Shown: one piece after another, positions 1 to 46,126 of the stretch
Position numbering within the stretch: the stretch's first letter is position 1
Layout of the letters: each line of letters begins with the position of its first letter
Assembly: GCA_963702895.1 (NCBI GenBank)
Contig: OY969767.1
Coordinates: 1,728,001 to 1,792,000, forward strand
DNA from: an uncultured Elusimicrobia bacterium
GTDB lineage: Bacteria; Elusimicrobiota; Elusimicrobia; 2-01-FULL-59-12
DNA: 64,000 bases
Direction: 5' to 3'
Position numbers and translations under genes: made by a program
The notes under the pieces: model-generated
Told to the model about the DNA's origin: nothing
Database searches by the model: none
The model's input: only the letters and a program-made list of their open reading frames with translations

Positions 1-3000
1 GCCGGCGGTGGAGGCGTCGGAGGCGGGATTTGCTTCACCTTCCGACCCGGCCCCGCGCACGGGGCTCCGTAATTGATCGCCGCGGGGAGCTTCCAGCGTT
101 TTTCCCCCGCCGATAAGAATCGCCAGAGCAAAGCGCAGCGGGGAAAAGACTCGTGCCAACGCCAGGCGCATGTCGCTCAGGCCGCTCAGCGAAGGAATCA
201 TTCCGACTTCAATCTTCGCGGGATCCGACTTTTTCAAGATCCGGACAAAACCGATGGCGGACCCGCGAATTTCATTCGCCTTCCAATTGGCGCCAAAGAA
301 AGGTCGACGCCCGTTCTTTGCGCCGGCTCCCGCAACGCCTTCCATAATCTTCTGAAAATCGCCCAGATTCTGGCTGGCCCCGCCGACCAGCACGCCATCA
401 ACGTCCTGCTGGCGCATGATTCCTTCGATGTTCTCCGGCTTGACGCTCCCGCCATACAGGATGCGAATCGTGCCTGCGACCTGAGCACCGTACAGCGATT
501 CAATTGTTCCTCTAATAAAGTTCGCCATGTCTTGAATGTCGTCTTCGCTCGCGATTCGCCCTGTGCCGATGGCCCAAATCGGCTCATAGGCAATGATGAG
601 TTCAGCCGCATCCTCGGGAGAAATCTCGGCGAGGCCCTCTTGGAGCTGTTGACGGATCCACTCTTTTGTCTTCCCTTTGTCTCGTTTATCCAGATCCTCA
701 CCGACGGCGAGTATCTTCGTTGGGAAACCTTTCTTGCTCGCCGCGCGAAGCTGAGCGTTGACTCTCTCATCATTGTCGCTCAGATCCATCCGGGTTTCGG
801 AATGGCCGACCAGGACACCTGTGGCCCCCCTTGCCAGGACATCGTCCGCTGATACCTGACCCGTTTTCGCGCCCGGCTTCGGCGTTATCCGTTGAGCGAT
901 GAGACCGACATGTCCAGGCCAGCTCAGCAGGCGGCTTTGCAGGGCGTAGCGCACGCGGTAGAGGTCGTTAGCCTCTTCCAAGCGATTGGGCGTCCGCGCA
1001 CCTCCGAGATGCGCTGTGGCCATGATGAAGCTTTCAACAAAAACAGCCGCAAAAACAGCCACCGCCGCGTAATCGAAAGCGCCCATCCTCGCCCAATCCA
1101 TGTGTCCCAAATGAATCCCTGTCGCGACGGCCAGAACCAGCCAAAAAACAGGGAATATTCCGGCCAGCACAACCGTACGCCAGGCGGTTGGCTCTTGTCG
1201 AAGCCCGGGCACTTCAACGAAGGATTCATTCGGGGAAACCACGCGTTTGGTTGGGCTGTATCCCGCGAGTTTCGCAAAGAATTCTGTGCCGATCTCTTCC
1301 AGCCAGGACGCCGGCAATGCGACGGCGCCCCAAAACCCGCGCACCGGGCTGCGAAGTCTGTCGCCAAACCCTGTGCTCGCCGCCGGGCGGGCGGCGGTGT
1401 CGCCGGTCGCGGGGGCCATGGTGCGGACGCCGGTACCGCCACGGGTCGCGACGATAAGATCAGCGAGGCGTGAAATATCGTCGCTCCTGTCTCGTTTCTT
1501 GATAATCACTCCTAATGCTTCGAGGTAGAAGGAAAGGTGTTCCAATCCCACCCGCTGGATGAAGGCCTTTCCTTCCTCGGTGAGCAAATCTTTTCCCGCT
1601 GGGGATTCCAACCTTGCCAAGTCCCGCCAAATAGCGTTTTCTTCATCACGAACTTCCGATTCACGATCGCGCATCGCGTCACGGCGGTGGCCCAGCTCAT
1701 GTCCGAGAATAAGCAACAGTAATGATTCGGCAATGGCTTTGGCGCTTTCTGAAGCCGTCGGTGCGAACGCGGCTTTCAACGCCTCCAAGACCACCTCGTT
1801 GATCACCAGCTTGGTCGGTATTCCTTCCTTGCCAGGCTCAATATAGGCCGCGCTGACGCTGTAGCGCGGGGCCACGTGAAGCTCCACTGCGCGCACTCCC
1901 ATCGAGATCACTTCTAGCGCTTTCGTGCCGAACGGTAACGCGTCCCAATATTCTTTCAGCGCTTGATTAAGCGCCTTCCGGAAATCTTCGTGTAGATTCC
2001 AGCGCTGTACTCCTTCAGGCCGCGGTCCTTTACGCCGTGCCAATTTAAGACCGCCTGTATAAGAAGGAGGGTTGATGTTTAATCCGGTGTCCACCGACTT
2101 AGCTTTTTGCCCGCCTCCGAACGTCCGCACGCTGCCGGCGGCAACCGTCCTTCCACCCCGGCGGAACAGTGGCCGGAACCAATTGTTTAGCCACGGTAGA
2201 TTCGCCTTGACTGCCACGGATTCTTCACTAAAGTCCGGGCCGGGACCGCTCGCCAGGGCCTGCGGAGGGAGCTGGAGGTCCCGCGCGAGGTCTTCTATGT
2301 TCGCATGCTCCCCCTTCATGCGGGCTTCGTAGAGCTGGTGATAGTCCTCCGAGATCTCGTCCACGTAGGGGGTGATGACGACGTATCCCACGCCCGCCTT
2401 CTTGAACTCGCGGATCATGCCGGCGGTGTGGAAACCTCCGGCCACCAACACAACAGTATCGGTGTAACGGGGTAACGGGGTAACGGGGTAACGGCTTTGT
2501 CGTGACTCCGACACGCCGGCACTCCGATACTCCGACACGGGGCTGCGAAGCAGCGCAAGCGTGTTCTTCGCCAGCGGCTCGTCCCGCATCAGGGCGACGG
2601 CGTAAAAGTCGATGGCGGACTTCAGAACCTCTTCTATTTCAGCAAGGCGTCCCGCGTCCTGCGTTTCGCGTCCTGCGTCCTGCGTCCCGCGTCCCGCGTC
2701 CTGCTTCTTGTCGTTCAGATTCTGCACCGGATCCTTGACGCGGGACTCGGGACTCGGGACACGGGACTCAAGTCGCAACAACTGTTGCGTGATCTCCACA
2801 AAGGCCGGAAGGCGCTGCGCCACGTAGCGGACTTCTTCCAGCGTGGTCTCCTGCCGGAGAAGCTTACTCAGGAAGCTCAGGGAATGGTCGATCTCCGCGA
2901 GGTTCTGTACGAGCGCAACTTCCTTCTCGTCCTGGACGGAGGTCTTGGCGATCTCCAGCTTTCGCTTGAGAAGTTCCTCGGCAGAACGGACATCATAGGC

Positions 3001-3687
3001 TTCCTGCCGGTCCAGACGCTTCAAGCCGTAGGGGTAATGTTCTTTCTTCAGGATGGCAAGCTTCCTGCCGATCCCGTCGAGACTGTTTTTGAGCTGATGC
3101 CGGCTCTGGAGCGTCCCTTTATAGAGCTCCCGGTTAAGCTTGTAATAGTCGGGTTCATCCACGCCGAAAAGCCTGTGCCCCTCGCCGCGCAGGATGGAGA
3201 ACGCCTCGTCGCCGGACATTTCGCCTTTGCTCAGGAAGTAGTCCACGAGCCTGGTTTTGAGCTTGCCGGACGGGTAGTTGGCGAGGATGCTCGTGTCATA
3301 GTCTCCGCTTAGGCCTTCCACGGCCACCCGGCCGGAGACGATGTTTTTGTCATAGAGATAATCCAGAATTTTGACGATGCGCTTTTGGGTGGGGTAATGG
3401 AGGTGGAGATCCTGAATTAAGATGACTGTATCGGCGTATCGGCGTGTCGGCGTGCCGGCGTCACGGCTTGGGTGTGACTCCGTTACTCCGATACTCCGAT
3501 ACTCCGATACTGGAGCTGGCAGCCAGTAGTCCGTAACAGAGGCGATCTTCGGCGAAAGCGAAATCTGGCTGACGATTGAGGGAACGGCGGCGGCGTGGGA
3601 AGGACTGGGGAGCGGAATCGACGTGAGGACCAGCGCCGCCGATATCAAAGTGGATAAAACTTTTCGGGTCTGTTTAATCGGTTCCAT
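1..3687 (-). CDS. Giant multidomain exported/membrane protein, runs off the left edge (>1229 aa): signal peptide, N-terminal IQDLH..VEG..RD..GGFH domain, HELGH metallopeptidase motif, TM hairpin, circularly permuted triosephosphate isomerase domain
   Basis: ATG at 3687 preceded by GGAGG. Manual translation gives MEPIKQTRKVLSTLISAALVLTSIP.. and no stop in the segments read. The track lists no terminated ORF in this frame, and plus-strand ORFs 73-852, 892-1473 and 2785-3312 are its codon-aligned antisense shadows. Motifs GHSETR, AYEPIWAIGTG, YGGSVKPEN, LVGGAS, GANWKAN. Confidence 0.9.
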   Translation of the reverse strand, partial: MEPIKQTRKVLSTLISAALVLTSIPLPSPSHAAAVPSIVSQISLSPKIASVTDYWLPAPVSEYRSIGVTESHPSRDAGTPTRRYADTVILIQDLHLHYPTQKRIVKILDYLYDKNIVSGRVAVEGLSGDYDTSILANYPSGKLKTRLVDYFLSKGEMSGDEAFSILRGEGHRLFGVDEPDYYKLNRELYKGTLQSRHQLKNSLDGIGRKLAILKKEHYPYGLKRLDRQEAYDVRSAEELLKRKLEIAKTSVQDEKEVALVQNLAEIDHSLSFLSKLLRQETTLEEVRYVAQRLPAFVEITQQLLRLESRVPSPESRVKDPVQNLNDKKQDAGRGTQDAGRETQDAGRLAEIEEVLKSAIDFYAVALMRDEPLAKNTLALLRSPVSEYRSAGVSESRQSRYPVTPLPRYTDTVVLVAGGFHTAGMIREFKKAGVGYVVITPYVDEISEDYHQLYEARMKGEHANIEDLARDLQLPPQALASGPGPDFSEESVAVKANLPWLNNWFRPLFRRGGRTVAAGSVRTFGGGQKAKSVDTGLNINPPSYTGGLKLARRKGPRPEGVQRWNLHEDFRKALNQALKEYWDALPFGTKALEVISMGVRAVELHVAPRYSVSAAYIEPGKEGIPTKLVINEVVLEALKAAFAPTASESAKAIAESLLLLILGHELGHRRDAMRDRESEVRDEENAIWRDLARLESPAGKDLLTEEGKAFIQRVGLEHLSFYLEALGVIIKKRDRSDDISRLADLIVATRGGTGVRTMAPATGDTAARPAASTGFGDRLRSPVRGFWGAVALPASWLEEIGTEFFAKLAGYSPTKRVVSPNESFVEVPGLRQEPTAWRTVVLAGIFPVFWLVLAVATGIHLGHMDWARMGAFDYAAVAVFAAVFVESFIMATAHLGGARTPNRLEEANDLYRVRYALQSRLLSWPGHVGLIAQRITPKPGAKTGQVSADDVLARGATGVLVGHSETRMDLSDNDERVNAQLRAASKKGFPTKILAVGEDLDKRDKGKTKEWIRQQLQEGLAEISPEDAAELIIAYEPIWAIGTGRIASEDDIQDMANFIRGTIESLYGAQVAGTIRILYGGSVKPENIEGIMRQQDVDGVLVGGASQNLGDFQKIMEGVAGAGAKNGRRPFFGANWKANEIRGSAIGFVRILKKSDPAKIEVGMIPSLSGLSDMRLALARVFSPLRFALAILIGGGKTLEAPRGDQLRSPVRGAGSEGEANPASDASTAG
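2455..2540. repeat. Inverted octamer tandem-repeat element, in frame in the giant ORF
   Basis: GGTAACGG x4 facing CTCCGATA/CTCCGACA units; encodes PVSEYRSAGVSESRQSRYPVTPLPRYTD. Confidence 0.85.
2647..2770. repeat. Inverted heptamer tandem-repeat element, in frame in the giant ORF
   Basis: GCGTCC(C/T) array facing GGGAC(T/A)C array; encodes ESRVPSPESRV..QDAGRGTQDAGRETQDAGR. Confidence 0.85.
3428..3512. repeat. Inverted octamer tandem-repeat element, in frame in the giant ORF
   Basis: GTATCGGC/GTGTCGGC units facing CTCCGATA units; encodes PVSEYRSIGVTESHPSRDAGTPTRRYAD. Confidence 0.85.
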
Positions 3688-3820
3688 TACCAGCCTCCAG
3701 GAAGAATGTATTAGCCCCACTAGATTAGCGGAATCCACGCGAATTTTGAATAGAACGAAGGGCTAAATAATACTCGCCAATAGTCCCAGACGACCATTGG
3801 GCCCAGTATTCCCCTTGATT

Positions 3821-5208
3821 GAGTTACCATCAAAAGTGCTGGAAATAGGTTTTAAGGCAAGGAAGGATTTGCCTTAGGAAATAGAAACGGCGTACCCTTT
3901 CGTTGAAACACACAAACCTGTCCGTTCGAGCGGACAATAAACGAAAAGGAGACGCCGTTATGGAAACCATTGTAAACGAGAAAGGGACTCAGCACAAAGG
4001 CGAGAGCATGGTGGATTATCTGGCCCGTGAAGGAGCGCGCAAGATGCTGGTGGAGGCCCTGGAAGAAGAAGTGACGATGTATTTAGAGCGTCGGCGCTAT
4101 GAACGGGCGAAGAATCTGGAGAAAGGCTATCGCAACGGAACCCGGGAGCGGAAGGTGACAGTTTTGGGAGCAGGTTTAAAGCTCTCGGTGCCGCAAGTCG
4201 ACGGGGGCGAGTTTGAGTCGAGCATCTTGCGTCCGTACCAGCGGCGAACCGAGGGTGTCGAGGAGTTATTCCGGCGGCTGTACCTGGAGGGGCTCTCGAG
4301 CCGGGACTTTGAGCCGGCGATGCGAGCACTGATCGGGGATGGAGCCACCTTATCAGCCAGCACGATCCTGCGTTTATCGGCGAAGTTTCAATCGGACCTG
4401 GCCACCTTCAGCCGCCGGGACTTATCCGAAACGCGTTACGCCTATGTCTGGGCGGACGGCGTGTACTTGAAGGCCGGGCTGGAGAAAGAGAATACGGCGC
4501 TTTTAGTGTTGGTTGGCGTGAATGCCGATGGGAAGAAAGAGCTGATGGCTCTGATGGAAGGCTACCGGGAGAGCCGGGATTCCTGGAAGGAAATCTGGCG
4601 AGGGGTGGCGGAGCGTGGAATGCCCGCTCCGCTCTTGGTTATCGGCGATGGGATGGGTGGGCTCTGGGAGGCGGTGGCGGAGGTCTATCCGACCGCCAAA
4701 GATCAACGGTGCTGGAAGCACAAGATGCGCAACGTCGTGGATAAAGTGCCGAAGGCCAAGCAAGAGGAGGTGCTCAACCGTCTGCGCGTGGCGTATCAGG
4801 CGGAGCGTCGAGAAGACGCGGAGAATCACCTGGCCTTGTTAGCCGAGGACCTGGAGATTCGCTACCCGAAGGCGGCGGCTTGTATCCGGAAGGACCATGA
4901 CGCCTTGCTGCGCTACTTCGACTTTCCGAAGGAGCACTGGGTGCATTTAAAGACGAGCAATCCGATCGAGTCGGTCTTCGCGGGGGTCCGATTGCGAACT
5001 CGCGTTGTGCGGCGGTTTCAGAAATCTCGCACGGGAGTAGCGTTCGTCTACAAAATCATTGAACGCCTGGCGCAATTCTGGAAGCCGATTGAGAAGCCGG
5101 AATTGGTGATGGGATTATTCGTCGAACGAGAGAAGCTGGAGGTAGCGGCCTAAGAGACTTTCGACCAAAGGGGCGCCGATCGATTTCCATCACATTTGAC
5201 TAAAGCTC
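3821..5208 (+). mobile_element. IS256-family insertion sequence
   Basis: Imperfect 26-bp terminal IRs (GAGTTACCATCAAAAGTGCTGGAAAT vs revcomp GAGCTTTAGTCAAATGTGATGGAAAT); flanking direct repeat CTTGATT at 3814-3820 and 5209-5215. Confidence 0.9.
3960..5153 (+). CDS. IS256-family DDE transposase
   Basis: YLEGLSSRDF, YVWADGVY, IGDG, QRCWKHKMRN, KTSNPIES motifs; SD AAGGAG before ATG 3960. Confidence 0.95.
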   Translation: METIVNEKGTQHKGESMVDYLAREGARKMLVEALEEEVTMYLERRRYERAKNLEKGYRNGTRERKVTVLGAGLKLSVPQVDGGEFESSILRPYQRRTEGVEELFRRLYLEGLSSRDFEPAMRALIGDGATLSASTILRLSAKFQSDLATFSRRDLSETRYAYVWADGVYLKAGLEKENTALLVLVGVNADGKKELMALMEGYRESRDSWKEIWRGVAERGMPAPLLVIGDGMGGLWEAVAEVYPTAKDQRCWKHKMRNVVDKVPKAKQEEVLNRLRVAYQAERREDAENHLALLAEDLEIRYPKAAACIRKDHDALLRYFDFPKEHWVHLKTSNPIESVFAGVRLRTRVVRRFQKSRTGVAFVYKIIERLAQFWKPIEKPELVMGLFVEREKLEVAA

Positions 5209-25340: not shown

Positions 25341-26540
25341 TCAGTAAAGAAGGTAGGATTGCCGGGTTTTCGCGAATCTCTCGGCACTCCGGTGGAAGAC
25401 CTCCAGGATCTCCGCCGCGGGTTTGTCTTGAAGAAAGAGATGTTGAAAGTCTTGAGAACCTGTCATGCGAGCCACTTCATCCCAGCGCGGTTGGAAATCT
25501 TTCTTCCATAGCTCCCGGATCCAGCAACTCGCTTGGACAAACAGATCGATGGGACGGGCGAGTTTGGCGTCCAGAACCTGGATTCGAACACCCGAACAGA
25601 GCTGTCCTTGATAGAGATCCGCTTGAGGGGTGAACGTAACCGCCTGGAATCGAAACCCCGGCAGGCTGAGATCATTTAATTTCTGGGCCAGCTTCTCACC
25701 GTCGATCCAAGGGGCTCCGAAATACTCAAAGGGCGAGTCCGTGCCGCGTCCGACTGAAACATTGGTCGCTTCAAAAAGGCCGACCCCCGGATAGAGGAGG
25801 GCCGAGGTCACGCTCTGAATATTCGGCGATGGCGGGATAAAGTCCCTGCCCGTCTCCTGCCAGAGCATGGAACGCGACCAATTCTTGAGCGGAATCACGC
25901 TTAAGGCGACATCGAGCCGCTTGTGCTCTTTGTACCACATGGCCAGTTCCCCTGGTGTAAACCCATGCCGGACAGGTATTTCGTAATACGCGGTGAAATG
26001 GCGAAGTCGAGGATCCAAGACCTGGCCTTCCAGAATATCCCCCCCCACCGGGTTTGGACGATCCAGAACAACAAAACCAATACCCCGTTCCGAGGCCGCC
26101 TCCATCGCCATCCCCATGGTCGTAAGATAGGTGTAAAAGCGCGTGCCGACGTCTTGCATATCAAAGACGAGCACATCGATGGAGTTGAGCATATCCGGCG
26201 AAGGTTTGCGCACAGACCCGTAAAGGCTGTAGACCGGTAAGCGCAGCCTGGGATCCAGCGTATCACCGACCCATTCGCCATGGCTTTCCTTACCCCGAAT
26301 GCCATGCTCGGGCGAAAATAACGCGACCAGCTTGACCCCGGGCGCTTGAGCGAGGAGATCAGCCGTACTTCTTCCCTCGCTATCGACTCCCGTATGATTG
26401 GTGATGAGGCCCACCTGTTTGCCTTGGAGCATCGCGTAACCCTGTGAAACAAGAACCTCCACCCCCACCACGACGGCGGGGGCCTTGGCCTGGGCGACGC
26501 TCAGAAGCGTGCATAAGAAGAAGACAATCGCTTGTTTCAT
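25341..26540 (-). CDS. namZ: Exo-beta-N-acetylmuramidase NamZ-like (DUF1343), with signal peptide
   Basis: LFSPEHGIRG, DMQDVGTRFYTY, DRPNP, SPNI, SVGRGT. Confidence 0.9.
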   Translation of the reverse strand: MKQAIVFFLCTLLSVAQAKAPAVVVGVEVLVSQGYAMLQGKQVGLITNHTGVDSEGRSTADLLAQAPGVKLVALFSPEHGIRGKESHGEWVGDTLDPRLRLPVYSLYGSVRKPSPDMLNSIDVLVFDMQDVGTRFYTYLTTMGMAMEAASERGIGFVVLDRPNPVGGDILEGQVLDPRLRHFTAYYEIPVRHGFTPGELAMWYKEHKRLDVALSVIPLKNWSRSMLWQETGRDFIPPSPNIQSVTSALLYPGVGLFEATNVSVGRGTDSPFEYFGAPWIDGEKLAQKLNDLSLPGFRFQAVTFTPQADLYQGQLCSGVRIQVLDAKLARPIDLFVQASCWIRELWKKDFQPRWDEVARMTGSQDFQHLFLQDKPAAEILEVFHRSAERFAKTRQSYLLY

Positions 26541-26591
26541 CGTCGAGCATGATCATATAACCGAACAACGAAAAATGCTACTGTAGCGCCG

Positions 26592-28103
26592 ATGGATGCT
26601 TCCATAAACACTTTTTTGTCGGGATCTCAACTGAGCTGGCCTGACTGGCTTGTGCTCTTGGGGCTGCTCGCCTTCATGATCGGACTGGGCTACAGGATGG
26701 GAGGCGGCCAGGCCACCACGATGGATTTTTTCCTCGCGCGGAGACAAATCCCCTGGTGGGCGGCTTGTCTTTCCTTTGTCGCCACCGAAGTGAGCGCGGT
26801 CACCATCATTTCGGTACCCGCCACCGCTTATATGGAAAACTGGGAGTACGCCCAGTTTTTTATCGGTTCGTTTGCCGCTCGGATCGCGATCGCCTATTAC
26901 TTCATCCCCGCGTTTTATCAATACAACTGCACCACCATCTATGAGTTTCTACGGCACCGCTTTGGCGCGGCGACACAATACATGGCAACCATCTTCTTTT
27001 TCATTACTCGTCTGTTGGGCTCTGGCGTACGTCTCATGGCCGCCTGCCTTGCGGTGAGCGTCCTCTTCGGATGGAACATCGTCCCCACGATCCTCCTCTT
27101 TAGTTTGATCAGCGTGGCTTACATCGCCTACGGTGGAATGCGTTCGGTGGTATGGACGGGGGTGTTGCAGGCGGTCGTCTTCATCGTGGGCGGGATCGCC
27201 AGCATCCTCTTTCTTCTGACACAGATCCCCGGCGGATGGCAGGGGATGCTGGAAACGGCGGGAGCGGCCGGGCGTCTGCATGTCTTCAACTGGGGCCCCG
27301 CTCTCGACACGCCGAATTATATCCGTCAGTTTCTGAAAGATCCCAATATCCTTTGGATCGCGATTTTAAATGGGTTTTTCGGGTCGCTGGCCGCTTTTGG
27401 CACGGACCAGGAGCTCATGCAGCGCTTGCTGACCCTGGAAACCCGCGAAAAAAGCCAACGCACGATGGTGCTGACGCCTTTTGCGTCCTTTTTTGTTCTT
27501 TCGATTTACCTGGCGATCGGGGCCTGTCTTTACGCTTTCTACGCGACGCATCCGCAGCTGCCTCTTCCAGAAAAACTGGACGCCATCTTTCCCCACTTTA
27601 TCGGAGGAGTCATGCCCGCGGTTTTACGCGGCCTGCTCTTGTCGGCCATCGTCATGGCGAGCATTGACTCGCCCCTGGCGTCCCTGGCGACCTCCTTTGT
27701 GACGGACATCTACAAACCACTCATCCGTTCAGGGAGGAGTGAGATGTTTTACTTAAGCCTCTCTCGCTGGTGCATCGGTGGGTTTGCCGTGCTTCTCGCC
27801 GTGATCGCCTATGCTTTTAGTTTTTTCCAGAACATCCTCTGGCTGGCCTTTAAAATCGGGGGCGTGACCTTTGGGTCCTTGCTGGGAGTGTTTCTCCTGG
27901 GGCTCCTCACTCAAAGGAAAGGAAATCGAGGCAATGTCGTGGCGATGATTGTGATGGCCGCCATCAACGCGACACTCCTGATTCTTTCCGAAACACATGT
28001 TTTAGCCATCGGTTGGACGTGGCTGGTCTTGATCGGGACGGCGGGGACGTTTATTCTGGGTTTTCTTTGGGGGCCGCGCTGGGAGTCACGCGTCTCTGCC
28101 TGA
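26592..28103 (+). CDS. Sodium:solute symporter family permease
   Basis: FFLARR, ATEVSA, GGMRSVVWT, GTDQELMQRLL; many TM segments. Confidence 0.9.
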   Translation: MDASINTFLSGSQLSWPDWLVLLGLLAFMIGLGYRMGGGQATTMDFFLARRQIPWWAACLSFVATEVSAVTIISVPATAYMENWEYAQFFIGSFAARIAIAYYFIPAFYQYNCTTIYEFLRHRFGAATQYMATIFFFITRLLGSGVRLMAACLAVSVLFGWNIVPTILLFSLISVAYIAYGGMRSVVWTGVLQAVVFIVGGIASILFLLTQIPGGWQGMLETAGAAGRLHVFNWGPALDTPNYIRQFLKDPNILWIAILNGFFGSLAAFGTDQELMQRLLTLETREKSQRTMVLTPFASFFVLSIYLAIGACLYAFYATHPQLPLPEKLDAIFPHFIGGVMPAVLRGLLLSAIVMASIDSPLASLATSFVTDIYKPLIRSGRSEMFYLSLSRWCIGGFAVLLAVIAYAFSFFQNILWLAFKIGGVTFGSLLGVFLLGLLTQRKGNRGNVVAMIVMAAINATLLILSETHVLAIGWTWLVLIGTAGTFILGFLWGPRWESRVSA

Positions 28104-28518
28104 GTTCATCCATATTCTTCTTGATCAGATCCAAAATCATCGGGAATTGAGCGGCCACGGCGTCAAAGCTCGCCTTTTCAAGGGCGTAGACCAGGCAGCG
28201 TTCATTCGACTTCACGAGCGCCGAAGCGGGTGACTCTTCAAACATGGATCGCTCCCCAAAAACATCCGGGCCTTTCAGGACGGCAAGCTGTTTTTTCTCG
28301 CCTCCAAGTCGCTTCCACACGCTCACCGACCCCGAGGAGAGAATAAAGAGCGTTTTGCCAAGCTCCTGATCCATCAAAATCACTTTCCCGACAGCGACAT
28401 CGCGCGCATCAAACTTGACCACCATCGCTTTGAGGGCTTCGTCGGGACAGGCCGCAAAGAGTGAAAGCCCTTTCAATATCGTGAACGCGTTTTGTTCCTG
28501 GTCGGGTTTGAGTTTCAT
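28051..28518 (-). CDS. Cyclic nucleotide-binding domain protein
   Basis: LFILSSGSVSV, FGERS, ASALV. Confidence 0.85.
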   Translation of the reverse strand: MKLKPDQEQNAFTILKGLSLFAACPDEALKAMVVKFDARDVAVGKVILMDQELGKTLFILSSGSVSVWKRLGGEKKQLAVLKGPDVFGERSMFEESPASALVKSNERCLVYALEKASFDAVAAQFPMILDLIKKNMDELRQRRVTPSAAPKENPE

Positions 28519-29399
28519 AGGATCTTCCTCAAAAAGCCTTTCGATTGATCGAGCAACCGCCTGGCCTCAGTGTACGAAATATTCTTTCGGGCCATCACAA
28601 TCGCCGTTTTGACCTGGCCCCTGGCCTGGTGGAAGAGACGACGGGCGTCGTTCCGGCTTGCCGGGCCCAATTCCTCGATCATGGCCAAGGCCCGCTCATA
28701 GAGCTTATGCGACTTGGGCTGCAAGTCCACCATACGGTTCCCATAGACTCTCCCCAATTGCACCATGCTGGCCGTGGTGATGATATTGAGTGCCATTTTA
28801 CAGGCGCTCCCCGCCTTGAGACGCGTTGAGCCCTTCAGAACCTCTGGCCCCGTAGGGAAGGCGATCCTCAAGTGGGCCAGGCCCTGCGCTGTTTTGGGAT
28901 TGCAAGTCAAGAGAATGGTTTTCGCCTTGCGTGACTTGGCGGCCTTTAACGCCGCATGGACATAGGGTGTCACCCCACTGGCGGCAATCCCGAGCACAAC
29001 ATCCTTTTTCCCAACACGGTGCTTGCGGAGAGCCGAGGTCCCGGCAGGCATGGAGTCTTCCGCCCCTTCCTGGGACCGAAATACAGCAGCGGCCCCGCCT
29101 GCCATCACCGCCTGAACCATCGAGGGAGGTGTTCCAAAGGTTGGAGGACATTCAGCGGCTTCCATGACACCGAGTCGTCCACTCGTTCCCGCACCAACCA
29201 GGATCAGACGCCCGCCAGTTCCGAGAGACGCCGATATGAGTCGAACGGCCCTGGCCATTTGGGGGGCCGCGCTGGAGATGGCCTTCAGGACATGACGGTC
29301 TTCTCTGTTCATGAGCCGAACGATCTCAAGAGGGGACAGCCGGTCCAGGTCCCGTGACCTGGGGTTCACTTTTTCCGTCGAGAGTGATGCGAAGTTCAT
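28515..29399 (-). CDS. murQ: N-acetylmuramic acid 6-phosphate etherase
   Basis: TEKVNP, GAGTSGRLG, ECPPTF, GAED, GPEVLKGSTRLKAG. Confidence 0.95.
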   Translation of the reverse strand: MNFASLSTEKVNPRSRDLDRLSPLEIVRLMNREDRHVLKAISSAAPQMARAVRLISASLGTGGRLILVGAGTSGRLGVMEAAECPPTFGTPPSMVQAVMAGGAAAVFRSQEGAEDSMPAGTSALRKHRVGKKDVVLGIAASGVTPYVHAALKAAKSRKAKTILLTCNPKTAQGLAHLRIAFPTGPEVLKGSTRLKAGSACKMALNIITTASMVQLGRVYGNRMVDLQPKSHKLYERALAMIEELGPASRNDARRLFHQARGQVKTAIVMARKNISYTEARRLLDQSKGFLRKIL

Positions 29400-29550
29400 A
29401 AACCTGTTCCCTTCAGGATATCACTTTCCTCAAATATTTCTCAAAAAAGGCCCAATTATTTTTAGACCTTTCAGGATGGGTCATTTTGCTGACATATATA
29501 GCACAAGGAGTTGGTGTGGGGTCAAACCTAGCGGAGAAGGGGAGGAAGCC

Positions 29551-29949
29551 ATGCGAAGACCCACATCCATCATGATCGTCGAGAACAACACGGATTTACG
29601 GAATACCCTGCGGCATGTCTTTGAGGACCGTGGCTATCTGACTTGGACCTGCCCGCTGCCGGAAATCGCGATCTCCATCTTCCGAGCCATTCAGCCCAGC
29701 ATGATCATCCTAGACCTCGATTATGAGGATTGTAGCGCGATCCAGTTGCTGGACGATTGGCTCACCCAAGCACCCAGCACCCGTATTATTGTTGAAAGTG
29801 TTCGTGAAGACCGGATTCAAGAAGCCAAGGACCACGGCGCTCGCGAATATCTCACCAAACCCTATACCCTTGAGCCACTCTACGAGCTGATCGATCATGA
29901 TGAGGCGCCGGATCCGATAAGCCTGGGTCATGTCAACCACGCTGCTTAG
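29551..29949 (+). CDS. Single-domain response regulator
   Basis: IMIVEN, IILDL, GAREYLTKP; SD GGAGG. Confidence 0.85.
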   Translation: MRRPTSIMIVENNTDLRNTLRHVFEDRGYLTWTCPLPEIAISIFRAIQPSMIILDLDYEDCSAIQLLDDWLTQAPSTRIIVESVREDRIQEAKDHGAREYLTKPYTLEPLYELIDHDEAPDPISLGHVNHAA

Positions 29950-29997
29950 CCGACGGCTTGGCTCAAGGAGGCAGAAGTCACACGCTCTCTTATTTTC

Positions 29998-31035
29998 GGT
30001 GAATTCCACCATTAAGTGCAACACGCGGCATTGAAGGCCTCCCGTGAGGTTTGGAATTTAAGGCATTTCCGAGGACGATCGTTGAGCCAATCTTCGATCT
30101 GTTGAAAGCGTTCCGGTCCCATGGAATCGAGTCTGGTACGCTTTGGAACAAAACGACGAATTAAGCCATTGGTGTTCTCTACGGTTCCCTTTTCCCAGCT
30201 GTGGTAAGGCTGACAAAAGTATGAGGTCATGGCGAAGTCGTCATTGAGCACCGCGTGTTCAAAGTTCTCTGAACCATTGTCATAGGTGATGCTACGCCGA
30301 AGATGATCGGGGACATTCGTCAAAAGGCCTGTCAGGGCCGCGCGGGAGACCGGGGCGGTTTTATTCGGGATACCGCGCAGCTTACTGTAGCGGCTTTGTC
30401 GTTCGACCAGGACTTGCAGGGCAGGTAAGCCCGGGCCCACGATCAGATCGGTTTCCCAATGGCCTGCTTCGGAGCGCGTATTGGCCGCTTCCGGACGTTC
30501 CAAGATCGACACGCGTCCAGGAATGCCCACATGGCGTCGATAAGGGCGATACCGTCGAGACCAGCGTTTGGGATGGGAACGGACCAAGCATCCGATCAAG
30601 TCTGGGCGTTCGCTGTAGATCCATTGATAGATCGCTTCGTACCCGATGGAACCGAGATCCTTACGGTGTTTGCTGATGCGCCCGGCAATGAGTTCGGGGG
30701 ACCAGCCTTTGACCAGCATCTGTTCGACCTCGTGGCGTAAGACGTGGCTTTTGAGGCGCATCCGTTTGTGCCCGGTGCGCAAGCGAGTCTGGGATTGTTC
30801 TTGAGCATGCCGGGCGAAGTAACCGCCCTTTCCTCGGTTTCGATGGAGTTCTCGGGAGAGAGTTCCGATAGACCGGTTTAGGCGATTGCCGATGTCTCGC
30901 AAGGAGAGCCCGCGACTTCGATAAACAGCAAGCGTGTCTCGTTCTTTTTCAGTCATCTGTGTGTAGGTCATACCTGCCTATTGTAGGCCAGGCCTTCATG
31001 ACATCAGAGTGTTGCACTAGCATATGGAACTTCGG
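29998..31035 (-). mobile_element. IS30-family insertion sequence (ends approximate)
   Basis: Imperfect ~27-bp IRs sharing TTCCA..AGTGCAACAC. Confidence 0.8.
30012..30971 (-). CDS. IS30-family transposase
   Basis: TLSRELHRN HTH, GHWETD, ITYDNGSE, PYHSWEKGTVENTNGLIR. Confidence 0.96.
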   Translation of the reverse strand: MTYTQMTEKERDTLAVYRSRGLSLRDIGNRLNRSIGTLSRELHRNRGKGGYFARHAQEQSQTRLRTGHKRMRLKSHVLRHEVEQMLVKGWSPELIAGRISKHRKDLGSIGYEAIYQWIYSERPDLIGCLVRSHPKRWSRRYRPYRRHVGIPGRVSILERPEAANTRSEAGHWETDLIVGPGLPALQVLVERQSRYSKLRGIPNKTAPVSRAALTGLLTNVPDHLRRSITYDNGSENFEHAVLNDDFAMTSYFCQPYHSWEKGTVENTNGLIRRFVPKRTRLDSMGPERFQQIEDWLNDRPRKCLKFQTSREAFNAACCT

Positions 31036-31050
31036 GTCTTAATAAATATC

Positions 31051-31079
31051 TTGATTCTCAGACGGAAATCAGCTATAGT
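31051..31079 (+). promoter_or_regulatory. Sigma70-type promoter
   Basis: TTGATT-17-TATAGT. Confidence 0.65.
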
Positions 31080-31088
31080 GTGATCGTT

Positions 31089-31283
31089 ATGAACGGCAAA
31101 TTCTCCATTCCGCCCGCCACTACACCGTTGGCGGGCGCCCGCCAGCGAATTAGTGGCGGGGCGATGCACCTTGGCACGTGGGTAGCGCGTCCGCCACTGA
31201 GTGTTCGGCGGACGCCCGCCAGCGCTGTAGTGGCTGGGCGTAAGTGCTACCCCCGTTGGGTGCTTTCGGATTTGGAGAGATAA
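31089..31283 (+). CDS. Putative leader peptide ORF containing two twin-hairpin REP-like inserts
   Basis: ATG 9 nt after the -10; its 3' end is complementary to the terminator-proximal sequence. Confidence 0.45.
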   Translation: MNGKFSIPPATTPLAGARQRISGGAMHLGTWVARPPLSVRRTPASAVVAGRKCYPRWVLSDLER

Positions 31284-31318
31284 GCCGGCTCGAGCAAGCA
31301 ACATCCCAAACCCAAGGC

Positions 31319-31346
31319 ACCCATCCTCCTGAGGATGGGTTTTTTG
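31319..31346 (+). terminator. Intrinsic terminator, probably an attenuator
   Basis: ACCCATCCT-CCTG-AGGATGGGT followed by TTTTT. Confidence 0.85.
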
Positions 31347-31393
31347 TTTTAAGCCTGCCGAGGGACGATCGGGAGCCAGAAAGTAGAGAAGAC

Positions 31394-31612
31394 ATGAACA
31401 TCGAAGACGCAGCAGAAGAAGTGCTGGTGAACCAACTGGCCATCGCCAGACAGAGCATCGAAGACCGGGACGCACGCATCCTGGACTTGCAAAGAAAAGT
31501 GGAATTGCTGGAAACCATGCTGAACAGGCTGGCTTCGCAGCGCTATGGTGTGCCTTCGCCGCAGCCGCAACCTTCGCTCAGACCGGCCCCAAAAAGATGG
31601 TCGGTCCGGTGA
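31394..31612 (+). CDS. Small coiled-coil hypothetical protein
   Basis: Heptad-like IEDRDARILDLQRKVELLETMLNRL. Confidence 0.6.
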   Translation: MNIEDAAEEVLVNQLAIARQSIEDRDARILDLQRKVELLETMLNRLASQRYGVPSPQPQPSLRPAPKRWSVR

Positions 31613-31664
31613 TGGACGGTTGCTTCAGAGGGGGGTGTTTCCTGAATTGGTATCATTAGCCGCT

Positions 31665-32828
31665 ATGCCAAAAGTGCTTACGGGACTCGAGGTCTTATGC
31701 GACCGTCACCTCGGAGATCTCCGAACAGCACGTGTGGGCGTTTTGTGCCATCAAGCTTCGGTGGACACGAAGCTGCGGCACATCGTCCCCCTTCTGCAGC
31801 ATCACGGGGTCAAGCTCGCGGCGCTCTTTGCGCCGGAACATGGCCTTTGGGGTGCAGCGCAGGATCAGGTGGCCATCAGCCCTCTCGAGGAAAAGCAGCT
31901 GCCCATCTACAGCCTCTATGGTGAGCGTAGGGCGCCCAACGCGGAGATGCTCAGAAACATCGACCTGCTCCTCTGTGACGTGCAGGATGTCGGCAGCCGA
32001 TACTACACCTTTGTCTGGACGATGGCTCTTGCCATGCAGGCCTGCGCGAAATACGGGAAGAAATTCATCGTCCTGGACCGCCCGAATCCCATCAACGGTG
32101 TGACGATGGAAGGTCCGGTGTTGGATCCTCGTTTTGCTTCCTTCGTAGGCCTTTACCCGATCCCCGTCCGCCACGGCATGACGATCGGAGAGATCGCCCT
32201 GTGGATCAACGAGGGGCTTGGCGTTGGCGCCGATCTTCAAGTGGTCCCAATGAAGGGATGGAAACGATCGATGTATTTCGAAGAAACCGGACTCCCCTGG
32301 GTCCCGCCTTCGCCCAACATGCCAACGGTCGATACCGCCGTGGTCTACCCGGGAGCCTGCCTGATCGAAGGAACGCCTCTTTCAGAAGGCCGCGGGACCA
32401 CACGCCCTTTCGAGATCCTGGGCGCTCCTTATATTGATCCTGACTTGCTGCACTTGGCCCTTCAGTCCATGAATATCGCGGGTGTCCTGTTTCGTGCCTG
32501 CCGTTTTGAACCCACCTTTCACAAATTCTGGGGAGAGTCCTGTGGAGGGATCCAGATCCACGTACTCAATCGAAGGACGTTTAAGCCTTTTCTTGTCGCA
32601 CTCCAAATTATTCAAACGGTGAGAGAACTCTACCCAACGCACTTTCTTTGGCGAGACCCCCCCTATGAATACGAGACCGAAAAACTGCCTTTTGACATAC
32701 TCTGTGGTACCGATCACGTGCGTCAAGCGATCGAGACCGGGCGTGCGGTCACGACCCTCGAAAGCCGTTGGCAGGACGCGTGCTCCGGCTTTGCTCGAGA
32801 GCGTCAACCCTTTCTCCTGTATAATTGA
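31665..32828 (+). CDS. namZ: NamZ-like (DUF1343) paralog without signal peptide
   Basis: LFAPEHG, DVQDVGSRYYTF, DRPNP, SEGRGTTRPFE. Confidence 0.9.
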   Translation: MPKVLTGLEVLCDRHLGDLRTARVGVLCHQASVDTKLRHIVPLLQHHGVKLAALFAPEHGLWGAAQDQVAISPLEEKQLPIYSLYGERRAPNAEMLRNIDLLLCDVQDVGSRYYTFVWTMALAMQACAKYGKKFIVLDRPNPINGVTMEGPVLDPRFASFVGLYPIPVRHGMTIGEIALWINEGLGVGADLQVVPMKGWKRSMYFEETGLPWVPPSPNMPTVDTAVVYPGACLIEGTPLSEGRGTTRPFEILGAPYIDPDLLHLALQSMNIAGVLFRACRFEPTFHKFWGESCGGIQIHVLNRRTFKPFLVALQIIQTVRELYPTHFLWRDPPYEYETEKLPFDILCGTDHVRQAIETGRAVTTLESRWQDACSGFARERQPFLLYN

Positions 32829-32847
32829 CCGCAAAAATATATTTGCG

Positions 32848-32930
32848 GTCATCCCGGCGGATTGTTAGCCGGGATCCATCATGCCTTTTACGAAATTGAT
32901 GGACCCCGGATAACGGATCTCCGGGGTGAC
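32848..32930. repeat. Intergenic palindromic REP-like element
   Basis: GTCATCCCGGC..CCGGGATCCA..TGGACCCCGG..CCGGGGTGAC. Confidence 0.75.
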
Positions 32931-32965
32931 GACATATAGAAATCTGACTTATCCGATAGGTATTT

Positions 32966-34513
32966 ATGCAACTTGAAGAATTGATTGGGACTCGCCTTGT
33001 CTTCGGTATTCCAGGGACCCGCATCACGCCCGAGATCGTTCGCCATTTCCAGGATACACACGCGGGCGGCCTGATCCTCTACCGAATCAATTTCGAGTCC
33101 CCAGAACAGACGCGGCGGTTGATTTCAGATTTAGAAAACGCCCTGGGCCGCCGATTGCTCGTTGGCTGCGATCACGAAGGCGGCCGCGTGATCATGTTTC
33201 AAGACGGTGTCACCGTCTTTCCGTCCAACCAAGCCATCGGAATAACGGGTGATCCTCAATGGGCAAGGGTCCAAGGAACACAAGAAGCGCGTGAGCTTCG
33301 CCGTTTGGGCATTGATGTGAATTTCGCGCCCGTATTGGACGTGCTGACGGAGGCTTACAGCCCGAACATTGGCATTCGCTCCTACGGCCAAGACCCGGAC
33401 ATGGTGGCCAAAATGGGAGCCGCCAGGATCTCCGCCATGCAGGTGGAAGGCCTCTCGGCCTGCGCCAAGCATTTTCCCGGTCTAGGGCCAGCGACCCTGG
33501 ACCCCCACTTACACCTTCCCACGATCCACGCGACCTGGGACGATCTTGAGAAAACACATGCCATTCCTTTTGCGCGGGCCATGCGTACGGCCGTTCACGC
33601 CATCATGACGTCGCATCCGCTCTACCCGCAGCTCGATCCCAAGCCCCGTACGCCGGCCACCTTCTCTCGCAAGATCGTGTATGACTATTTGCGCAAGGGC
33701 CAGGGCTATAAAGGGGTCATCTTCTCCGATGATCTGGAGATGGGTGCCATCCGAGAGCTCTGTGACATCGGGGAAGCTGCTGTTCGAACGGTCGAGGCAG
33801 GGCACGACATGGTCCTCTCCTGCCATGACGCGCGAGCTCAGAAGGAGCTCACACACGCCCTTCGAGCGGCCTATCAATCCCATCGATTGTCCAAGAAGGA
33901 GCTGGAAGAAAGCAGCCAAAGGATACAGAGTCTCATGTCCCAGCGATCCGAGCGCTTTGCCAGTCCCCCTTCGACGGAGATCCGCGCCAGGAAAGAACAA
34001 GATGAGGTCCATGGCGCAGTCCGTCAGATCACGGATCTTTCCGTGACGATCCTCCAGCCAGGCGTGATGCCGACACCGTCAGCCCGGACGGTCGTTGTTT
34101 TCCCGCAACTGTCGAAACTCGCGGGCACTATTATGATGGAGCCCGAGGAGCAGGATGAAACCGCCTTTCTGAACCGTCTTTGCGACCAGGTTGGGGTCAG
34201 GTCCTCTTCGACAGCGCTCTATGCGATTGACCTGAAACCCGAAGACGTCGCACCCCTCGTAAGCTCCGTGTCCGGCTTCGAGCAAATCCTCTTGTTCCTC
34301 TTTGACGCCCATCTCTACCCTGCACAAAAAGAGTTGTTGGACGCTTTACAAAAATCTGGGAAGAGAATCACGGTACTTCTCTTAAGAGACGTCTATGACT
34401 TGTCCTTTGTTCAGCAGGGTGTCGCCTGCCTGACCAATTACGGATTCCGAGCCTGTGACATTGCCGCACTTCTTCGTAAATTATTTTCTCCCGCGCCAGT
34501 TCCCACCCCATAA
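32966..34513 (+). CDS. nagZ: GH3 beta-N-acetylhexosaminidase
   Basis: DHEGGRV, NFAPVLD, KHFPGLGxxxxDPH, SDDLEM. Confidence 0.9.
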   Translation: MQLEELIGTRLVFGIPGTRITPEIVRHFQDTHAGGLILYRINFESPEQTRRLISDLENALGRRLLVGCDHEGGRVIMFQDGVTVFPSNQAIGITGDPQWARVQGTQEARELRRLGIDVNFAPVLDVLTEAYSPNIGIRSYGQDPDMVAKMGAARISAMQVEGLSACAKHFPGLGPATLDPHLHLPTIHATWDDLEKTHAIPFARAMRTAVHAIMTSHPLYPQLDPKPRTPATFSRKIVYDYLRKGQGYKGVIFSDDLEMGAIRELCDIGEAAVRTVEAGHDMVLSCHDARAQKELTHALRAAYQSHRLSKKELEESSQRIQSLMSQRSERFASPPSTEIRARKEQDEVHGAVRQITDLSVTILQPGVMPTPSARTVVVFPQLSKLAGTIMMEPEEQDETAFLNRLCDQVGVRSSSTALYAIDLKPEDVAPLVSSVSGFEQILLFLFDAHLYPAQKELLDALQKSGKRITVLLLRDVYDLSFVQQGVACLTNYGFRACDIAALLRKLFSPAPVPTP

Positions 34514-35404
34514 ATGAGCAGCACGTCCTGGGTGGTCGGCATTGATCTTGGCGGCACCTGGATACGCCTCTGCGCGCTGAGTCCTCGACGCAAGATTGTT
34601 CTCAAGATCACACGGCCGGCTCCTTCCCTCGAACAGTTGCCCCACTTCCTCAAAAAGGTCCTCGCCCCTTATCGCCAGCGCCTCTTGCACCTCATGATCG
34701 GATCCAAAGGGGTCTGGAAACAAAACAAAAAGAAATGGCTCGCCCGTGCCCTGGAGGGAACGGCCGACCAGGTGAGCGTGATATCAGACGTTGAGGCGAC
34801 CTGGGAAGCCGCCTTTGGCCATTCGGCCAGGCCTATGCGAGGGGTCGTGGTGATTGCAGGCACGGGCTCCATCGCTTATGGTCGCCGGGCGGATGGCACC
34901 TTCGCCCGGGCGGGCGGACGCGGCCCCGGGAAAGGCGATGAAGGCTCAGGGTATTGGATAGGAAAAGAGTGGTTGGCCAGAACAGGCAAGAGGAACAAGA
35001 GAAGAGGGACGACAGACGACCGACGAGGGGCGAGGCGAGCCCTGGGAAGCACATGCGATGACGTTCGGCGTGTGGCGGCACTGGCTCCCGAAATCGTCAA
35101 GAAAGCTAGAAGCAAGCACGCTCTCGCCTCCTTGATCATTCGAGAAGCTCAAGAGCATCTGGTAGACCTCTTCGCCTCCGTGTCGCATCGCCTGCGCCTC
35201 AAGGGGACAGTAAAAGTTGCTCTCCATGGGAGCGTCCTTCAAAACACGTGGTTTCAGAAGGGCTTCCTGCAAATGGCGCGCAGAAGGGGACTTCGGCTCG
35301 AGTTGAAACCTTTAACCTTCGATATCGCTTTCTCTCTTGCGTCATCCTTCTTCTCTCGTCCCTCAAGCCTCATCCCTCGTCCCGCGTCTTGTTCCGAAGT
35401 ATAA
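34514..35404 (+). CDS. BadF/BadG-type sugar kinase, probable GlcNAc/MurNAc kinase
   Basis: GIDLGGT, IAGTGS, GDEGSGYWIG; context with murQ and nagZ. Confidence 0.8.
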   Translation: MSSTSWVVGIDLGGTWIRLCALSPRRKIVLKITRPAPSLEQLPHFLKKVLAPYRQRLLHLMIGSKGVWKQNKKKWLARALEGTADQVSVISDVEATWEAAFGHSARPMRGVVVIAGTGSIAYGRRADGTFARAGGRGPGKGDEGSGYWIGKEWLARTGKRNKRRGTTDDRRGARRALGSTCDDVRRVAALAPEIVKKARSKHALASLIIREAQEHLVDLFASVSHRLRLKGTVKVALHGSVLQNTWFQKGFLQMARRRGLRLELKPLTFDIAFSLASSFFSRPSSLIPRPASCSEV

Positions 35405-35410
35405 TGGGTC

Positions 35411-35953
35411 ATGGTTCTGGCTGAACCAACCGCCGCTTACAGGGGCAAGACCCTTCCGGATTATCTCGCGCCGCATCTCAAACTCCTCATGGTCGGCATC
35501 AACCCCGGGACGTATTCCGCTCACACCGGGCATTATTACGCCAGGCCAGGGAACCTTTTCTGGTGGGCGCTCTCCAACTCCGGGCTTGTCCCGCATGCGA
35601 TGGGACCGGAAAATGATGCGGAGCTTCTCCGCTACGGCATCGGCCTGACGGACATCGTCAAACGCCCCACGAACAGTTCAGGAGATCTCCGGCAAGCCGA
35701 ATTCGATAACGGCGCCCGGTTAACTTCAAAAAAGATTGAGGCCTACCGTCCACGGGTCGTCTGTTTTGTCGGTCTTCTGGGTGCAACCGCTTTTGTGGGG
35801 AGGCACGTCACCATTGGTCCTTTGGCTGAAAGGATAGGAAACACGAAGCTCTACGCGATCCCCTCCACCAGCAGAAGAAACGCGCATTACGGGCAACAGA
35901 CCATCCTCAAGCACTTCCAAGACCTTTCGGCTTACGTCAAGAACGCTTCTTGA
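35411..35953 (+). CDS. mug: Mismatch-specific uracil-DNA glycosylase
   Basis: VGINPG, PGNLFW, GIGLTD, PSTS. Confidence 0.9.
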   Translation: MVLAEPTAAYRGKTLPDYLAPHLKLLMVGINPGTYSAHTGHYYARPGNLFWWALSNSGLVPHAMGPENDAELLRYGIGLTDIVKRPTNSSGDLRQAEFDNGARLTSKKIEAYRPRVVCFVGLLGATAFVGRHVTIGPLAERIGNTKLYAIPSTSRRNAHYGQQTILKHFQDLSAYVKNAS

Positions 35954-37133
35954 CGAGAAAATACAGCTTCCCCTGATTCCAGAGATGTGACGCAAAGGAC
36001 AGCGCTTCCTCACCGCGTCCCGCAAAGATGTCGACACGGCCAGGACCCTGAATCGCGCCCCCTTCATCCTGATTGAGCACAAAGCGCTGCAGAGGACGCG
36101 GCCCTTCCACAACAATCCAAGCCAAGGCCCCTTTGGGGAAGATTTTAGGGTCTGTCGCAATCGAGCGCCCCGGTGTAAGCGGTACCTGGATATTGCCAAA
36201 CGCGTAAGGGGCAGCCGTGCTCGTATCGAGGCGGAAGAAGATATAGCGCTCATTGACATTTAAGATCTTCTGGCGCTCACGCGGGTGCTCTTGAAGGTAG
36301 CGCCGCAGTGCATCGCGGGAGAACTTATGTTTGGGAATCTTGCCTGTGGAAATGAGATATTGGCCGACGGACCTGAAGCGCTTCCCATTATCACCGTCGT
36401 AACGGATCCGGCGCAGATTTCCACTGCCGAAATCAAGCCATCCCGAACCCTCGATCTGCATGTCCAGCACGTCGAAGGCATCTCTGGCCCAGGCCAACTC
36501 AAGCCCCTTCACCCTTGATTGATGGACGCCCTCCAGCTCCCCCCTCGTGTAATAAGGGACCAGCGCCCTGCCCTTCTGGCGGCCGACGATGCGGGCCCCC
36601 GGGTTGCCGGTGCCAAAAAGCGAAAGGTCCACATCGATGAGATCTGGCGGGCGCGCGTAAAGAGGAAACTTGTACTGCTCATCCGGCGCTGGACGAGCTG
36701 GAATGGTAGGCTCAAAGTAGGACGTAAACGTGACGCTGCGCTGCTCATCGGTGCCAATCGACTGATACACTGCAAACTCTGAGGCAATGCGTGCCGTCCA
36801 GTCTTGTTGATTCGGCGACTGTCTCAAGAAGCTCATCACGTCGTCCATGGAACTCGCGAGATGCTTGACCGTGTAGGTATCGTGACCCAGCACGAAGAGA
36901 TCGTTCGCAGGCAGTGCCTTGTAATAGGTGTAGCTCTGGAGGACGGCACGGGCCAGGGAGGGGGAGTTGAGATCGTCCAGGAATGGCGGGTATTGCGAGG
37001 GGTCCAGGCGTACCAGGGCTTCATAGCGTGACACCCGCGGCTCAGGCGGCAAGGGACGCGGAGGGGCCGTCACGCATCCGTCAAGCAGAAGGAGAAAGGC
37101 CAAAGGCAGCAGCAACACCTGACCCAAAAACAT
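35937..37133 (-). CDS. mltA: Membrane-bound lytic murein transglycosylase A (lipoprotein)
   Basis: Lipobox-like LLDGC, TSYFEP, QIEGSG, SIATD, QDEGGAIQGPGRVDIF. Confidence 0.9.
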   Translation of the reverse strand: MFLGQVLLLPLAFLLLLDGCVTAPPRPLPPEPRVSRYEALVRLDPSQYPPFLDDLNSPSLARAVLQSYTYYKALPANDLFVLGHDTYTVKHLASSMDDVMSFLRQSPNQQDWTARIASEFAVYQSIGTDEQRSVTFTSYFEPTIPARPAPDEQYKFPLYARPPDLIDVDLSLFGTGNPGARIVGRQKGRALVPYYTRGELEGVHQSRVKGLELAWARDAFDVLDMQIEGSGWLDFGSGNLRRIRYDGDNGKRFRSVGQYLISTGKIPKHKFSRDALRRYLQEHPRERQKILNVNERYIFFRLDTSTAAPYAFGNIQVPLTPGRSIATDPKIFPKGALAWIVVEGPRPLQRFVLNQDEGGAIQGPGRVDIFAGRGEEALSFASHLWNQGKLYFLVKKRS

Positions 37134-44632: not shown

Positions 44633-44635
44633 GCG

Positions 44636-45898: not shown

Positions 45899-45934
45899 AT
45901 ATTTCTTAGTCACGGGATAAATATAACGCATTAT

Positions 45935-45978
45935 TGTTACAGATTCATTGCGGCAAAGTAAATTCTGTGTTACAGAAT
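45935..45978. promoter_or_regulatory. Candidate operator upstream of the PorV-like operon
   Basis: TGTTACAGA twice, 33 bp apart; perfect IR ATTCTGT-GTT-ACAGAAT. Confidence 0.45.
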
Positions 45979-46126
45979 ACACGGTATTCATTAGCCCCAA
46001 ATTGTGCACTCGTCAACAGCAGAGTTAACACCTCTTAACCTTCATTGAATTCTATAGTCAAAAATGCTCACTCTGACGGAGCCTGTATAATTTATGATCG
46101 GATTATAGATAGGTTTTGAAATAGAC

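Follow-up and report, generated by a model that had tools for sequence, protein, structure and literature searches.

Viral polyproteins combine a protease encoded in cis with short words between their modules. The analogy with viral polyproteins has also been drawn for the polyvalent proteins of phages and conjugative elements, in which, according to the available part of the paper, unrelated domains stand in one chain and an embedded metallopeptidase is proposed to free them (PMC5512222). A different group of long chains, the multi-enzyme proteins of Omnitrophota with a signal peptide and transmembrane (TM) helices, is proposed to undergo self-cleavage, and the cleavage points are stated to be unknown in the accessible portions of two preprints (bioRxiv 10.1101/2023.11.21.568195; bioRxiv 10.64898/2026.06.07.730766). 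As to a junction motif, the text of the 2026 preprint contains neither "motif" nor "cleav", and in the 2023 text "motif" occurs once, in the title of a reference. Where giant multi-enzyme proteins are cut, and whether they are cut at all, is an open question in print as far as these portions go. A literature search on junction words and giant proteins found no report among the sources within reach, which excluded subscription papers and bioRxiv supplements. For a candidate cutter, a precedent is RRSP, a sequence-specific TIKI endopeptidase with the catalytic set E3900/H3902/E3930/R4001/H4030; the TIKI superfamily also holds esterases and non-enzymes (PMC6254334, part of the text).

The mosaic protein and its surroundings

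The window, i.e., the whole 64,000-nucleotide stretch of DNA that was analysed, contains at its left edge an open reading frame (ORF) on the minus strand, which runs from a GTG at 3738 to 2,154 bases past that edge and encodes 1,964 aa from the GTG or 1,947 aa from Met18 (residue 1 is the GTG throughout). The modules follow in the order: probable signal peptide, head, HExxH module, decamer copy 1, TM hairpin, triosephosphate isomerase (TPI), decamer copy 2, GHMP kinase, and TM tail. Of the named homologues of the entire protein, the closest, P0016, is labelled Elusimicrobia. The features are as follows:

1..3687, minus: mosaic membrane protein gene from Met18; the remainder, GHMP kinase (aa ~1261-1790) and then the TM tail, lies beyond the left edge
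3592..3687, minus: probable Sec signal peptide (basic start, hydrophobic core aa 27-45, SHA end), from a by-eye reading and hydropathy
2194..3591, minus: head, aa ~50-515, TIKI/erythromycin-esterase/ChaN-like, kept across relatives
3411..3403, 3318..3316, 2586..2581, and 2439..2428, minus: head residues D110-L-H112, E141, R385-D386, and GGFH434-437, respectively
2536..2550, minus: partial third copy, LRSPV, inside the head, aa 397-401, at the beginning of a repeat-derived loop
2119..2130, minus: VRTF, Arg-centred word after the head, aa 537-540 (post hoc pattern)
1444..2016, minus: HExxH module with approximate boundaries, zincin-like by motif; HELGH, aa 680-684, at 1701..1687
1417..1428, minus: VRTM, aa 771-774
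1336..1365, minus: motif copy 1, GDRLRSPVRG, aa 792-801
1003..1170, minus: hydrophobic hairpin at aa 857-912, probably two TM helices, from hydropathy
988..999, minus: ARTP, Arg-centred word between hairpin and TPI, aa 914-917 (post hoc pattern)
112..912, minus: circularly permuted TPI, aa 943-1209, from Pfam, strand search, and model
52..81, minus: motif copy 2, GDQLRSPVRG, aa 1220-1229

The HExxH module has no match in Pfam, and its atlas leads, M78 and M91, are both below 0.9; Pfam also finds neither C39 nor S8 peptidases in the mosaic protein. The model of aa 770-1260 says nothing on copy 1 and the TM hairpin, where pLDDT is below 50; in it, copy 2 lies 11 aa past the last modelled TPI helix and ~32 aa short of the GHMP homology block. 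The whole protein contains no cysteine. The tails of the subfamily to which it belongs (e.g., L001:9844-10400, minus strand) carry a conserved TM helix, a basic patch, a PTPPS-like word, and an Ala-rich end.

The TPI module starts with native residues ~54-245 (Pfam positions 54-243), and the native first strand comes after them, at aa 1144-1169, with NWK at aa 1151-1153. The match of this strand to the genome's own TPI was equalled in 1 of 500 shuffles, the GHSE, YEPIW, and NWK motifs are intact, and the permuted module folds as a TIM barrel in the model. The same permuted order is common to six long homologues (P0004, P0005, P0006, and P0011-P0013). Tandem permuted copies were observed in P0004 and P0005, the latter labelled Omnitrophota, and the genome also retains a normal TPI. 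A literature search, including the available part of PMC13552848, returned no report of a permuted TPI.

Directly upstream of the mosaic gene, on the opposite strand, lies a mutator-family transposase (3903-5153, plus strand). Farther along the window, three genes follow one another at 38773-46009 (minus strand): a PorV-like gene, one for an Ig/fn3 protein whose C-terminal signal domain is of type IX, and one for a 1,030-aa TPR protein. The stretches 25341-37133 and 59932-61167 carry a cluster of the peptidoglycan-recycling type (two NamZ, GH3, MltA, sodium:solute symporter) and a RuBisCO large-chain-like gene.

Likeness and probable constraint of the two decamers

A preliminary description of this DNA reported two decamers bracketing the TM hairpin and the TPI. 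Both are indeed present, on the minus strand and in the same frame, at 1365..1336 and 81..52, with 9 of 10 residues identical; the bracketing and the four synonymous codon pairs named there were confirmed as well. The description also placed the decamers in low-complexity linkers, and this stands for one side of each, upstream of copy 1 (A/G/S/P/T fraction 0.73) and downstream of copy 2 (0.69), and not for the other sides (0.48 and 0.44, against 0.37 for the whole protein). At the DNA level, 23 of 30 bases are identical, with five differences synonymous and two within the single changed codon. The last 15 bases match at 14 positions, and the 45-base flanks have 25 of 90 bases in common; the edges are sharp and the flanks random. 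No pair with at least 9/10 identity appeared in 500 shuffles of the protein. The same codon is used at 5 of the 9 shared residues when 2.5 are expected (P = 0.07), which suggests, from a very small sample of two copies, that they probably share an ancestor. The partial LRSPV in the head matches copy 1 at 14 of 15 bases. Contigs of run X1, which may be the sample that the sequence came from, matched all of copy 2 and 19 of the 30 bases of copy 1, with zero differences.

It had been proposed that selection acts on the peptide and that the pair is not a DNA repeat. This is supported by a neutral-decay simulation and by the lack of both a hairpin and a repeat-family match. Run at eight divergence levels from two ancestors with the discovery rule applied, the simulation gave 9/10 identity with at least four synonymous codons at a probability of at most 0.005 at any divergence tested; conditional on discovery and pooled over the chosen grid the value was 0.006, a figure that ignores the number of genes screened. 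Since such a synonymous excess is hard to reach by neutral decay, the codon comparison makes a peptide-level constraint on the decamer likely. Another family member, L038, has three copies of the junction word SGAADGPA with 2, 4, and 5 base differences, every one of them synonymous, with a switch between TCA and AGC at a serine among them; its paralogue L039 has a fourth variant.

By another reading, the decamer would be an element of the DNA itself (a REP-like hairpin, a tandem repeat of 7 or 8 bases, or a recombinase site) read in frame, or a product of chance. The gene does contain translated 7- and 8-base repeats in its head, but a hairpin origin was ruled out by folding z-scores of -0.98 to +0.21, no better than shuffles, and a tandem-repeat origin by the lack of a match to the 7- and 8-base repeat families of the genome, where the decamer has two copies only. 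Together with the result of the protein shuffles, this leaves such an origin largely refuted and, in our estimate, very improbable.

The translated repeats fill the head loops (window ~2430-2560, ~2640-2770, and ~3430-3520, minus strand) and recur in the heads of paralogues and at other places in the genome. In an ordinary-looking flavoprotein ORF (G000:C1 1680084-1681856, minus strand), which may be NadB-like, LRSEVRG is translated from a 7-base tandem repeat, and counts of RSEVR can therefore be inflated by DNA repeats. Metagenome contigs L071, L074, L075, L091, and L120 contain an unrelated DNA repeat, present in many copies, whose short frames read GDWLRSPVRG and which raises the pattern count.

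The decamer might also be a functionless relic: module shuffling or gene conversion would have left behind a short patch of homology, which flanks an inserted hairpin and TPI cassette and is now decaying. In favour of a relic are the restriction of the decamer to one gene, the five shared codons and 14 of 15 matching final bases, the equally close LRSPV in the head, the shift of G+C along the gene from 0.59-0.60 (aa 201-1000) to 0.53-0.56 (aa 1001-1800), and the private paired patches seen in several relatives. However, four synonymous codons combined with 9/10 identity are rare under neutral decay, by an estimate that depends on the grid and leaves the genes screened uncounted, and the sharp edges and random flanks also speak against it; we consider this origin rather unlikely.

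Distribution of the decamer and of other junction words

The outcomes of the checks proposed in the preliminary description speak against conservation of the decamer. Among all six-frame ORFs of at least 100 aa in the 2.72-Mb genome, the two sites alone match all 9 fixed positions, the next best matching 7, and no further full copy exists. Homologues do not conserve it, the best match being 5/9 among 58 proteins and 6/9 among 174 (overlapping sets). Within the mosaic protein it occupies only 2 of the 5 junctions, and its copies do not abut native termini, the distances to the closest end of a homology block being 130 and 30 aa. None of the 400 other sampled genomes of the phylum contains the decamer: the scan of 401 matched two, its own and G240, where Arg replaces Ser. 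In 11 genomes of the family, LRSPVR was not above control (88 matches vs 127 for the reversed control). A scan of public collections, with Ser as AGY only and over records from which near-identical ones may be missing, gave 52 metagenome loci and 33 genome loci, the latter at chance level (~35 expected with uniform base use); no frame at these loci had a family match at E<=1e-4, and no genome title named Elusimicrobiota or Omnitrophota. The decamer is also lacking in L037, a relative from the same genus that shares the head and the GHMP module, in the four paralogous giant proteins of the genome, and at the TPI borders of the six long homologues with the permuted order.

Relatives carry words of their own. 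In six homologues with the same head (P0060, P0062, P0070, P0071, P0192, and P0195), retrieved through the mosaic protein or its head, words of the form R-S-x-[LVAMI]-R occur 3-7 times per protein and with few exceptions read RSE[LVMI]R; counts among 196 proteins were 18 for RSELR, 11 for RSEVR, and 3 for RSEMR. RSPVR fits the R-S-x-hydrophobic-R frame, but with Pro in place of the near-invariant Glu, and instead of three or more copies of RSE[LVM]R, which are absent here, the mosaic protein has RSPVR twice. Other private repeated junction words were observed in L038, L039, L046, L051, P0020, P0035, and P0047, namely SGAADGPA, AINSAxxGGET, PAPPSAQxATEGxPP, RTMPG, GDDLGxPG, and DTAMQMP, the last occurring five times in P0047. 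The decamer fits a junction word private to its lineage or to a single protein, of a type that recurs in the family.

A shared core of such words was sought around Arg. RTM or RTF was noticed at junctions in the subfamily of 15 proteins whose heads carry QDLHLHY. The pattern RT[MF][PGA], fixed beforehand, was not enriched in held-out proteins, almost all of them outside this subfamily (14 vs 12.2 expected). A second pattern, [AVIL]R[TS][MFP], tried post hoc and including LRSP, occurs 16 times in the subfamily vs 6.1 expected, although some occurrences are homologous to one another, and 8 of these 16 words lie at most 11 aa from a homology-block end, compared with 17.7% of all Arg (P = 0.003, post hoc). 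Among 12,690 patterns of the same shape this one comes 26th; outside homology blocks it shows no enrichment (P = 0.17), and in the wider family its count stays at background (53 vs 53.2 expected). In the mosaic protein, all five of its words beyond the head fall between modules, in stretches that make up 18% of residues, and an Arg-centred core stands at 4 of 5 junctions (post hoc), the GHMP/tail junction having no Arg word. Among new subfamily members sought for a held-out set, P0073 alone was new at full length, and 7 QDLHLH loci from other families were off-frame. An Arg-centred junction core may be regarded as a lead.

The decamer is thus a real and probably selected junction word, of unproven function. 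It could have been selected as a peptide and yet not be cut, serving as a docking, chaperone, export, or modification tag for module handling. The same synonymous excess would result, the words lie at least 30 aa from module cores, so that cutting would leave long stubs, and the wide variation of words between lineages is compatible with such a tag. Against it, a shared partner acting in trans should impose one word per genome, and the four paralogous giants do without the decamer; we find an uncut tag rather unlikely.

The head as a candidate cutter and comparison with described systems

The preliminary description suggested a dedicated or in-cis protease, and the head is the candidate for the latter. 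Its confident model (pLDDT 83.7) has a parallel beta-sheet core with flanking helices, and in both fold searches the top five matches were entries for Ere, Bcr135/136, ChaN, and HopBA1, with middling scores in VIA (Z 7.4-8.0, rmsd 4.1-5.8, 163-191 residues aligned) and in Foldseek (E 0.008-0.015). Pfam ChaN (PF04187) matches 9 of 27 heads weakly, with a best E of 0.00023, and a PDB sequence search with the head returned coiled-coil noise only. By its modelled fold, at these middling scores, the head would belong to the TIKI/TraB/Ere/ChaN superfamily. Each of the 15 subfamily heads retains the elements D-L-H, E, R-D, and GGFH (D110, H112, E141, R385, and H437), which run in the same order as the RRSP set and are mapped onto it by order and spacing. 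The modelled complex of the head with a 35-aa motif peptide scored 0.02. Residue order and modelled fold make the head a candidate in-cis protease. The head family is very large, with 5,402 representatives at E<=0.001. In this genome the same head also occurs in four more long proteins of 1,536-12,935 aa (G000:C1 749878-788682, 797984-802591, 802661-807850, and 2386882-2406927), and two genes encode stand-alone heads of ~350 aa (G000:C1 272088-273149 and 2368887-2369909), which could act in trans.

The reading that we prefer, with a probability of roughly 0.4, is that the decamer is recognised, and probably cut, in cis by the protein's own N-terminal TIKI/RRSP-like head. A single linker word would have been copied to the second junction by internal duplication or gene conversion and since maintained at the peptide level. 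The signal peptide would export the head, and the TM hairpin, in the topology assumed, would keep the head and both decamers on the same side of the membrane. Cutting at both decamers would then release the HExxH part, a membrane-anchored unit of hairpin and TPI, and a tail-anchored GHMP kinase. A head acting in cis would leave each lineage or gene free to change its word (to RSE-x-R, SGAADGPA, RTM/RTF, or LRSPVRG), which would account for a word confined to a single gene and different from those of its paralogues. Topology, catalysis, recognition, and cleavage are steps that we infer, and cutting in cis leaves unexplained the unmarked GHMP/tail junction and the long stubs that cuts would leave. 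In its widest form, which we consider possible but somewhat less probable, the proposal is that Elusimicrobiota and Omnitrophota make true self-processing polyproteins whose TIKI-fold head cuts its own chain at drifting words, GDxLRSPVRG being the one-gene site that frees the membrane-anchored permuted TPI.

The cutter could instead be the adjacent HExxH (zincin-like) module or a separate protease, by analogy with the MPTase domains of polyvalent proteins, for which the available part of PMC5512222 gives a precedent. The mosaic protein has HELGH at aa 680, and RTM follows HExxH-type modules in several relatives, namely P0017, P0019, P0020, and L035. Yet HExxH was found in only 5 of the 14 subfamily proteins examined, P0021 has three junction words without HExxH, and the universal part is the head and not HExxH; we judge this improbable.

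Cutting in cis by the head would bring the protein close to viral polyproteins, with which it shares a protease-like domain and short words between modules. It differs from them in that the word is missing from some junctions, is not conserved in relatives, and is not at native termini; a polyprotein-like working is suggested only by inference, and the decamer is absent from most junctions, from homologues, and from the edges of native termini. Like polyvalent proteins, as described in the accessible part of PMC5512222, it strings unrelated domains into one chain, and by its HELGH the HExxH module is a candidate for the embedded metallopeptidase proposed there, but it is chromosomal, secreted, and membrane-anchored, with metabolic cargo and a TIKI-like head, and its gene neighbours, a mutator-family transposase and housekeeping genes, do not point to carriage on a phage or conjugative element. 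Ere/Bcr135/ChaN entries are among the top fold matches of the head, and RRSP has the same order acidic-x-His, Glu, Arg, His; in contrast, RRSP cuts host Ras in trans, and the head here is a candidate peptidase matched by residue order and spacing (PMC6254334, available part).

Within the family, a comparison can be made with the RSE-x-R junction proteins, which have the same head family, the R-S-x-hydrophobic-R frame, and words between modules, whereas the decamer has Pro for Glu at position 3 and two copies in one gene. A private word with only two copies makes weaker evidence for cleavage than the many-copy RSE-x-R cases do. With the Omnitrophota proteins, as far as the accessible preprint portions describe them, the mosaic protein shares a signal peptide (by eye), TM helices, and strung sugar-metabolism enzymes including TPI; unlike those chains of at least 10,000 aa, it has 1,947 aa, an Elusimicrobiota-type host, and no C39 or S8 peptidase by Pfam. 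In architecture it is a small Elusimicrobiota counterpart of the multi-enzyme proteins of Omnitrophota with signal peptide and TM helices, and since it is small enough to be expressed whole and offers a candidate cutter with named residues and two defined candidate sites, the question of cutting that was raised for those giants becomes directly testable in it.
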